DNA of 64,000 nucleotides from Dendrobates tinctorius (Eukaryota): assembly GCF_039654945.1 (NCBI RefSeq), contig NW_027361731.1:22134001-22198000 (forward strand), written 5' to 3'. Made by a program: the position numbers and the translations under genes. Position 1 is the stretch's first letter; each line of letters opens with the position of its first letter. Positions 6,501 through 15,235 of the stretch are shown in pieces. The notes beneath the pieces were generated by a model. It did not search any database. It was not told the DNA's origin and saw only the letters and a list, made by a program, of their open reading frames with translations.

Positions 6501-9500
6501 TTGACATTTATATCATTTATATCTTTTGCACTTTGCACATAGCACTTTAAGAAAGAGATATAAATATTTTGTTGATAATCAACTCTAAATCTGCTTATTT
6601 TTTGCCCCTAAGCAGTTGTCCTATGAACCTTCAGCTTGTAATCCATACTAAACATACATTTCAGGCAGTTTCTTTTACTAGCCCTTTTGGAAACATAGGT
6701 TAGATGTTTATCATAGTTTCTGGGGACTATATTATTAATTGCTACATCCATGAGTGGTGCACAGGTGTCATAAATAAATCGCATGATGTCAATTAGTGCA
6801 TATTTTGTGTAGGCATATTTCCTGTGCACTCTAGCAATACTATACTAAGTCACATTTTTCCCTGTATTTATCCATTGTGATACCCTTGCTAGTGGTTATA
6901 TTGTGCACCATGTATCTCTATTTTTTTGTGATTTATACTATGAGTATGTATTTTTATATGACCAAATAAAAGTTGGTTTTAATCATATTTAATGTCTATT
7001 TTGAAATTGTGGTCTACACTTCCATTATTTTTGTTGGTATTCTAGGTGATGGATATTGTTGTTTTTTTCATTTTTATTTCTTTACATGGGACAATGGCTT
7101 CACTGGATTAGGTGTTAAGGTGAGTATAATGTGATTTTTTTTTATTTTATACTTAATTTTTCTCTATGTAGACAGCGGGGGCCAAATACAACTCTCAACA
7201 TTGTCTACTGCTTGTGATGATGACAGACAGAACAGGGTACATTGATGTGAGCTGTTTCAAACAACTGGAGCCAGGGATCAGCACGAACAGTACCGCTGAT
7301 TCCCAGGTGCCATTACGTGTCACACTGATGGCACACGCCTGTCATCCATGTGTCATTAGTGTGCATGTGTGCAAGAAATTTTGTGGCCCATTCTGCTGCT
7401 AAAAAACAGTCATGTCAGCGTGCCTTGCCCAAAGACACATGGTCCGTGGAAACACACTAACCTGTGCGCAGATCCATTCACTTGAATGGGTCTACGTGTT
7501 TAAGTATCTCCGATACGTATGAAGAATGTCACCACATGTATCGGACACACTGACGTGTAAAGGAGGCCTTAAGGGGGTACTTTAATTTCCATTTCCTATC
7601 CCAAAATATAGTAGGTGTAATAATAATAGCAAATACCTCCAGTTAGAAATGTGGTATAGTTTTCCTGATTCTCTATGTCGCTTACCCCATGTCCAGGGCA
7701 TTGCAGTAGCTTAGGTATCCATGGTTATGACCACTAGTAACTAACAGTCACTGTATCGGTGGTAGTAACCATGGATACCTAAGCTAATGCAATGCTCTGC
7801 ACATGGGGTGAGCAACATAGCGAGTCAGAAGAACTATACTTCATATTTCCTAATATTATTATTACACATACTACATATGGGGATGGATGATCAGAGATGG
7901 AAATACGCCTTTAAGAATCTCACATGTTTTTATGGTGTATATTTTTATCTGTTGCTATAGAATGTAATGTAATAAAGCTTATTTTTAATCCTCTCTTTAT
8001 TGCTTCAAACTTTTCTGTGTTTGTGTATTATGTTTGTCGATTGTACTTTAGAGGTTCAGTACCATGGGATTTGTGAACAGGTGGCTCACCACTGTCTTAG
8101 GTCATAGTTTCATTATACTTTGAGTTGTATAGAATTATGTATATAGAAAATATATAAAATATAAGGCATTGATAAAGAAGGGGGCTGGAGAAGGGCACAG
8201 CCTAGGGGAAGCTCCCCATGACTGCTATGGGCGGGAAGTTTGAACTAGTGTTGTGCCAGTTTGAAATGGTTGGCCGGGACGGGGGCCGGGGGAGGGGTTT
8301 AAGGTGGGGGCAGCCTGTATTAGGGAAAAAGTGCGGGAAAAACCGCACTCACCAGCCAGGAGCAGAGGAGAGAAGTCCCACCTGAATCGATGGACGACGA
8401 GCAGCAACTTTTCGCCAGACTGCAGGATGTGGCCAGGTCCAGGAGGGGAGGATGGCTACAGACCCAGCTTTCCTCCCTCCTCAGCGCTGCGGAGCAGGGA
8501 ACCAGCCGGCGTGGAAGGAGGACCCGTCCCCCCGAAAGGCTGTCACCGGAGGTGTCAGCGCGCAGCAGGCGGCGGCTGCGGAGCCCCTCCAGGGACCCTG
8601 CGGGTGGCGCAACAGTTGGGGCTGCATCCCCTCCCTGCGCCCGTCCCGGCAGGAATCCGCCCAGCCAGCCGGTCAGCACGGGCGGCAAGCGTGGGGGAGC
8701 AGGACAGGAACAGCAGGCCGGACCGGAAGTGACGTCGCGGGCAGGAGCCGAAGAGTCGCGCAGCAGGGGGGAGTGTGAAGTCCGCGGCAGGCCCTCACAG
8801 CGGCGAGGCCGGCGCCGGCCGGCGCCGGGCAACACAGCGGCGGGAGGCAGGATCGAGGGCGCCCCCGGGGATGAGGACCGCTCGGGGGCGTCTGCCAGCC
8901 AGGGCACCAGACGTGGCGCGGCGGGCAGGAGGGGGCGTTGCGGCAGCGCCCTGCCTGGCCCCACCGTCAGCAGAAGGACCGGAGGTGAGGCGGGCGGGAG
9001 GGTGCCGGATGCTGCCGCCCTGCCTTCCCCCATTGCAGTCCATAGCGTGAGAGCGGCGGTCGGGAGGGGGCAGCACGAGGACGCCCTGCCTGGTCCCAGC
9101 AGCATGTGGAGCCCCGACCGATCGGCGGACAGGAGGGGGCTCAGCGGGGATGCCCTGCCTGGTCCCAGCAGCACTTGTAGCCCGGACCGGTCGACGGGCG
9201 GGAGGCGACTTAGCGCGGTCGCCCTGCCTGGCCCCTATCCAGCAGACGAGGCACCAGGCACCTGGGGGCATTTATCCGGGAGTCGCCCGGAGGGTGCTAC
9301 GGACCGGCCAGTCGGGCATGGGTCCAGGGACTGTCACGGGTCCCGCTCAAGGGGGAGTTCTCGGGAGCGGCGGGTATCGCATGCTCGGGTCCCCCCGGTG
9401 ACGAGGAGGCCAGGGGCGCGGGCCTGGAGCAGCGGTGCCTGCATCAGGATCATCGAGGACGTCAGGATTCCGGATTTCCAGCTGGCGGGGACACAGCACC

Positions 9501-15235: not shown

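Follow-up and report, generated by a model that had tools for sequence, protein, structure and literature searches.

Four genes lie in overlapping frames in a tyrosine recombinase (YR) retrotransposon of the frog Dendrobates tinctorius, raising the question of how the two late ones, a recombinase and an SGNH hydrolase (esterase), are translated. A preliminary description of the window, as we call the whole stretch of 64,000 nt that was analyzed, had proposed that the esterase is made as a spliced fusion to the N-terminus of Gag. Our analysis makes it very probable that intact relatives of this element combine one phase-1 donor in gag with two alternative phase-1 acceptors, yielding three proteins that share their N-terminal 374 residues. 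The proposed GagN-SGNH fusion is upheld by conserved sites, by phase and by RefSeq models, which are predictions, while the second acceptor, serving the recombinase, had been missed. From the sites, their phase, their conservation and the joints carried by models of other frogs, we infer the same joints as RNA in D. tinctorius.

The element, at 8175-14863 in the window, is a damaged copy of a young amphibian Ngaro retrotransposon. Its order (A1, gag, RT-RNase H, YR, SGNH esterase, B1, A2, B2; Table 1) is the Ngaro layout, with split direct repeats, with gag, RT-RNase H and tyrosine recombinase genes, and without integrase, protease or methyltransferase. Pfam recognized RVT_1 (E 5e-8) and zf-CCCH in the element and gave no match to the window YR itself, which was identified by motifs in its sequence and by relatives carrying PF00589. 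The closest annotated relatives are frog proteins, and the 6.36-Gb genome holds at least 39 other close copies, all 39 of which were retrieved. As already recognized from its frameshifts, the window copy is defective, all four frames being broken. The RT-RNase H frame has its ATG (10588) 17 nt ahead of the gag stop, in the +1 frame. By eye no pyrimidine-rich acceptor is evident for this gene at 10312-10607; re-initiation and frameshifting are candidates for its translation.

Table 1. Features of the Ngaro element (window coordinates)
Feature	Position	Strand	Remarks
Split direct repeat A1, 5' end of element	8175..8382	+	99% identity to 14068-14275
Shared first coding exon, Gag N-terminal half	8390..9511	+	1-nt deletion near 9390 in this copy
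Splice donor GTGAGT, phase 1 in Gag frame	9512..9517	+	
Gag core and CCCH zinc finger	9512..10607	+	Predicted from unspliced RNA only; 1-nt deletion near 10118
RT-RNase H frame	10312..12162	+	ATG at 10588 overlaps gag end; premature stop at 11851-11853
Acceptor 1, pyrimidine tract and CAG, within RNase H end	12045..12063	+	Phase 1 in YR frame; first exon base 12064
Tyrosine recombinase exon	12064..12980	+	Motif HSFRIGAAT, final Tyr; 45-nt deletion near 12351 in this copy
Acceptor 2, pyrimidine tract and CAG	13010..13038	+	29 nt before GHS Gly codon; first exon base 13039
SGNH esterase exon	13039..13603	+	31-nt deletion near 13320 shifts frame in this copy
Split direct repeat B1	13627..14068	+	AATAAA at 13925-13930
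Split direct repeat A2	14068..14275	+	
Split direct repeat B2, 3' end of element	14422..14863	+	

A second YR retrotransposon, broken and DIRS-like in the wording of its gag and recombinase, occupies about 35049-39175 on the minus strand. Ty3/gypsy pieces (protease, RT, RNase H, integrase, chromodomain) are found at 22153-28930 and 54657-55796, one of them inserted inside another in the opposite direction. C2H2 zinc-finger coding stretches are present at 14867-15235, directly behind the Ngaro element, and at 58185-60077. Elsewhere in the genome, many copies with equal scores are clustered on few contigs (C68, C76, C197, C251, C290, C402 and C415 of G000), often as facing pairs, which suggests spread within a larger duplicated unit.

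Both the donor T|GTGAGT at 9511/9512 and the open frame around it (9214-10164) were located as first described. Because the frame of the ATG (8390) and the 9214 frame differ in the window copy, phase cannot safely be taken from this copy alone. In L015, L021 and L026, three copies whose 739-aa Gag is unbroken, the 9214 frame proves correct at the donor, and comparison with them reveals the base missing from the window copy. The coding part of exon 1 amounts to 1123 nt, or 374 codons plus one nucleotide, bearing out the phase 1 originally assigned. Between 8390 and 13603, GTRAGT occurs three times among 361 GT dinucleotides, and acceptor 2, a polypyrimidine tract and CAG that do end at 13038 as reported, ranks joint third of 416 AG by a simple pyrimidine score. 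Since the sites are good by score but not unique, chance is excluded only through conservation; in the window's subfamily, the −1 position of the donor is a T, a weak base there. Among the 39 close copies, the donor reads GTGAGT in 33, is a variant in 2 and was unmatched in 4, while acceptor 2 reads CAG in all 39. Such young copies say little about selection, and other families were therefore sampled.

Searches with the window query and with proteins of three other frogs gave hundreds of matches, from which 80 loci were retrieved, picked by eye for variety. Sixty of these and seven loci from closer sets made up a panel of 67; one was dropped for want of a GHS motif, leaving 66 loci with esterases 40-100% identical to that of the window's family. 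The donor was sought across families using protein motifs alone as anchors. In clade 1, the motif T-A-P-x-Q-L/P is followed at once by [G/T]GTGAG in 29 of 29 matches (9 distinct sequences). In clade 2, GGTGAG follows in 24 of 28 matches, the other four resembling unrelated matches, a count that is partly circular as this motif was picked after inspection of the data. For reference, GGT makes up 10-31% of the Gly codons in five gag frames. The donor is present in 52 of the 66 loci. Of these 52, 24 have the phase-1 frame of the donor continuing without interruption to the Gag core motif, the rest being broken copies, and 12 have it intact upstream as far as the N-terminal motif.

In 64 of 66 loci, the esterase acceptor is a YAG whose end and the GHS Gly codon downstream are spaced by exactly 29 nt, that is in phase 1, and an AG ends there in 20 members of a non-redundant set (n = 22), in which the upstream sequence has a pyrimidine fraction of mostly 0.7-1.0 and few other AG. 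By contrast with this fixed position, the interval from the YR stop to the esterase measures 39-116 nt, is divided over all three frames (9, 4 and 8 of 21 non-redundant loci) and often contains in-frame stops; judged by its sequence, it behaves as an intron, not as code. A branch-like word YTRAY, counted without a control, occurs in 17 of the 22 non-redundant loci and is absent in the window's family. In several clade-2 families (e.g. L102-L113) the YR stop TAA itself lies within a branch-point-like YTAAY, about 20-25 nt before the acceptor. The preliminary description had named conservation of donor, acceptor and phase as a check, and all three are kept in intact copies and across families. 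The features of U2-type introns, namely a GT donor, a pyrimidine tract with YAG, matching phase and conservation, are all found.

These data bear directly on two other ways of making the esterase. In the window's family its frame follows the YR stop (TAG C) without a shift, so that readthrough could give a YR-SGNH fusion. However, the offset between YR and esterase takes every frame across the non-redundant loci just described, and a second stop intervenes in several of the in-frame families (L061, L074, L079, L111 and L120). The frame shifts between intact families largely refute readthrough, to which we assign next to no probability. Alternatively, esterase and recombinase might be separate proteins begun at their own ATG or near-cognate codons, through internal promoters or re-initiation, the splice-like signals being by-products. 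Twelve of 66 loci do have an in-frame ATG 21-66 nt upstream of the GHS motif, and many YR frames have an early ATG, located 29 codons in for clade 2; own starts are possible in some families. Yet the remaining 54 loci have no ATG there except for the Met directly before GHS, a start at which would lose the first strand, and the upstream ATGs are found at six different places against one for the acceptor. As a general account, independent starts strike us as very improbable. The fixed acceptor position, taken with the shifting distance and frame of the YR stop, argues strongly against both routes and leaves splicing from gag as the preferred reading.

A second phase-1 acceptor, which would open the YR frame at 12063/12064 and is absent from the preliminary description, is likely as well. 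The CAG at 12061-12063 was found because toad models carry a short middle exon resembling the start of YR. In a scan anchored on the YR motif TW..Y, 44 of 53 loci have a phase-1 CAG, at −122 in clade 1 or −116 in clade 2; the anchor was lacking in 13 of the 66, and 9 did not match, some by a one-base shift. The CAG persists even in whole families (L070-L079, L087, L089 and L105-L108) whose RNase H end motif, ADxLSR, has drifted. Moreover, many families have a stop 10-22 nt upstream of the acceptor that closes the YR frame, so that this frame opens at the acceptor. Because the site is partly RNase H code (a Gln codon), it provides less clean evidence than the esterase acceptor.

Protein databases offer a further view of the joints, with the reservation that RefSeq proteins are gene models and that joints were deduced from the protein, not from the DNA of those genomes. 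Sixteen of 22 long esterase relatives, drawn from 11 frog species (XP_ accessions were confirmed for 10), are RefSeq-style models in which a Gag-type or low-complexity N-terminus is joined to SGNH, with neither Gag core nor RT in any of the 16. The other six are Ranitomeya imitator models with the esterase exon behind mixed, inconsistent upstream pieces. Eight of 14 inspected models have the predicted spacing of 10 residues between the GHS Gly and the end of a segment that resembles TAP.Q[LP] or finishes in Pro; two join 12 residues before it, and four are unplaceable or have a middle exon. Likewise, most of 25 long YR relatives consist of a Gag-type N-terminus joined to YR, again lacking core and RT. 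The gag motif ends 41 residues before TW..Y in 7 of 13 inspected GagN-YR models, a spacing that agrees with the −122 site found independently in the genomic loci; the other six (five Xenopus, one Pseudophryne) are unplaceable from protein alone. Further models, found in Hyla, Bombina, Eleutherodactylus and Xenopus, came from a wider search.

The models of a single toad gene include both predicted products. For Bufo bufo LOC121003196, which has the entries XP_040290783 and XP_040290798, isoform X1 is GagN-YR (619 aa) and isoform X3 is GagN-SGNH (496 aa), their first 298 residues being identical by eye, and three more toad loci, judged by cluster and length, have the same pair. Alternative isoforms in the NCBI pipeline are not known to arise except from aligned transcripts, and gene finders choose good splice sites unaided. 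Six RefSeq models, P0003 and P0035 (Bufo), P0021 and P0049 (Anomaloglossus), P0167 (Xenopus) and P0174 (Ranitomeya), seem to represent a third form, in which a short piece from the YR start serves as a middle exon before the esterase; its donors differ between families, and the window's family yielded none that matches. Outside the amphibians, the lizard model P0073 (Podarcis muralis) has, judged by eye, YR behind a low-complexity N-terminus, with the joint in a similar-looking position. Long vertebrate gene models such as P0120 (gecko, 3112 aa) and P0245 (salmon, 1723 aa) end in a related SGNH domain and possibly represent captured or domesticated esterase exons.

It could still be argued that splicing is real but starts from another or non-coding leader or from host exons, the GagN fusions in RefSeq being model artefacts or copies with internal deletions. 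Fusions at the DNA level do occur: in locus L050 (G000:C86:16.75 Mb), both repeats are present, RT-RNase H and YR are deleted (the equivalent of about 10592 to about 13040 in the window), and nearly all of Gag, including its core, is in frame with the esterase. This locus was considered as a spliced retrocopy and rejected; the microhomology shared by its gag end and esterase start marks it as a deletion, in a single copy, whose breaks lie elsewhere and are not GT-AG. Against artefacts, models of many species end at the same gag motif and continue into two different downstream exons. Nor does any genomic copy have the donor or an acceptor already joined: two exact patterns gave 0 and 0 matches, versus 167 for the exact 21-nt donor pattern. 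We regard this explanation as having only a very slight chance. Since no joined copy was found by these two patterns, the spliced RNA, if made, seems not to be often retrotransposed. Contigs from four of seven sequencing runs over 8100-14800, runs not recorded as RNA and contigs of a kind that drops rare forms, do not connect 9511 with either 13039 or 12064, a result that counts neither for nor against splicing. In the Logan proteins, 33 candidates for the junction region included two matches, both unspliced read-ins. We consider the splice signals that would link gag to two late exons to be real and conserved, and this arrangement to be probably widespread, as a general rule, among amphibian Ngaro elements.

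In intact copies, the predicted products measure 739 aa (Gag), 694 aa (GagN-YR) and 572 aa (GagN-SGNH). Their shared exon encodes a conserved start of about 33 residues, helical or amphipathic in appearance, in which L11, W22 and L23 are at least 90% conserved in 20 sequences, then an RPPERLSP motif and a low-complexity stretch that is two-thirds R/G/A/S/P with a net charge of +23. Prediction of self-association for the N-terminal 42 residues gave a score of 0.13. In the ESM Atlas, the N-terminal 77 aa returned only parathyroid-hormone clusters below 0.9, with recognition under the threshold, which were taken as noise. The esterase is better defined. Its S12, G43, N76, D165 and H168, in the SGNH blocks, are invariant in 13 of 13 sequences, and its model (pLDDT 91.7) has the SGNH fold, with GDSL/SGNH enzymes as the top named Foldseek matches (TM 0.7, E about 1e-8). 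Lipase_GDSL_2 matches with E 7.6e-7 and 30.2 bits, just below the cut-off of 32.9, and the only PDB match to the family profile is the ZfL2-1 ORF1p esterase, 4c1b (E 0.0019). Substitution patterns place the esterase under purifying selection (dN/dS about 0.07 in three unsaturated pairs of seven), and with its full catalytic set kept, the predicted GagN-esterase is an enzyme fusion first.

In retroviruses and gypsy, env is a 3' gene expressed from a spliced subgenomic mRNA that skips pol, and Env, a membrane glycoprotein, keeps at most a few Gag codons. The Ngaro esterase would resemble env in being a 3' gene reached by splicing past pol; it would differ in that about half of Gag is kept, that there are two acceptors, and that one product is the integrating enzyme. 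The comparison with env made in the preliminary description is therefore apt for the expression route and not for the product, which in the predicted model folds as a soluble SGNH enzyme and not as the transmembrane fusion glycoprotein, with signal peptide, that an Env is. Another parallel is the ZfL2-1 ORF1p esterase of an L2/CR1-type LINE, which hydrolyses esters and binds acidic phospholipids (PMC3905857). It too is fused behind an N-terminal ORF1 segment, but there in one ORF, replacing RNA-binding domains (PMC3905857), whereas the Ngaro fusion would be an optional spliced product beside full Gag. In Ty1/Copia elements, conserved alternative splicing sets the ratio of the proteins, with Gag alone made by splicing and the enzymes from unspliced RNA (PMC5580714); in Ngaro, splicing would instead make two enzyme fusions.

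The Xenopus elements DIRS-53_XT and DIRS-54_XT have the same split repeats (A1/B1/A2/B2) and gene set as the window element: besides gag, RT-RH and YR they carry an SGNH ORF, their fourth, "with no proven function" (PMC9210276). That study treats them as four overlapping ORFs, whereas here YR and SGNH would be alternative 3' exons of gag; "splic" and "intron" have 0 occurrences in its main text. Host exonisation of DIRS gag has been described (PMC4495291). A word search of the accessible text of PMC9210276, PMC7192593, PMC9341512, PMC3783388 and PMC6681497 found no passage on spliced Ngaro or DIRS expression. In the Ngaro/DIRS literature covered, which excludes the foundational Goodwin and Poulter papers, the 2015 review and the supplements of PMC9210276 (Ngaro transcripts), we found no description of spliced expression or of Gag-YR or Gag-SGNH fusions. 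Already known are the Ngaro layout, the amphibian hydrolase ORF, its function unproven (PMC9210276), and splicing in retroelements such as Ty1/Copia (PMC5580714).

We propose how the element may work. Unspliced RNA would be translated into full Gag, while joining the gag donor to 12063/12064 would give GagN-recombinase and joining it to 13038/13039 GagN-esterase. The shared first exon would supply both enzymes with a start codon, and with a basic N-terminal tag that may keep them with Gag and RNA, probably for co-assembly; splice rates would set the amounts of recombinase and esterase. The esterase might act on lipids, as its ZfL2-1 counterpart does, in particle assembly or transport, a role to which we give somewhat less than even odds. 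A bolder reading, which we think rather unlikely, extends it to vertebrate Ngaro elements at large: the Gag exon would be an assembly tag loading recombinase and esterase into the Gag particle, and the esterase, in the role of an envelope, would move the particle on or across membranes, perhaps between cells. If true, an envelope-like job would exist in a class of retrotransposons thought to lack such a protein.

For YR retrotransposons, whose overlapping late ORFs have to be translated, a shared first exon is one answer for recombinase and esterase alike, and would explain how late genes mostly lacking a start codon are read. It would also redefine the proteins themselves, since recombinase and esterase would both be longer by about 374 residues, and many RefSeq entries of frogs that bear the name "collagen-like", "IF-2-like" or "SRRM1-like" would then be spliced transposon products.
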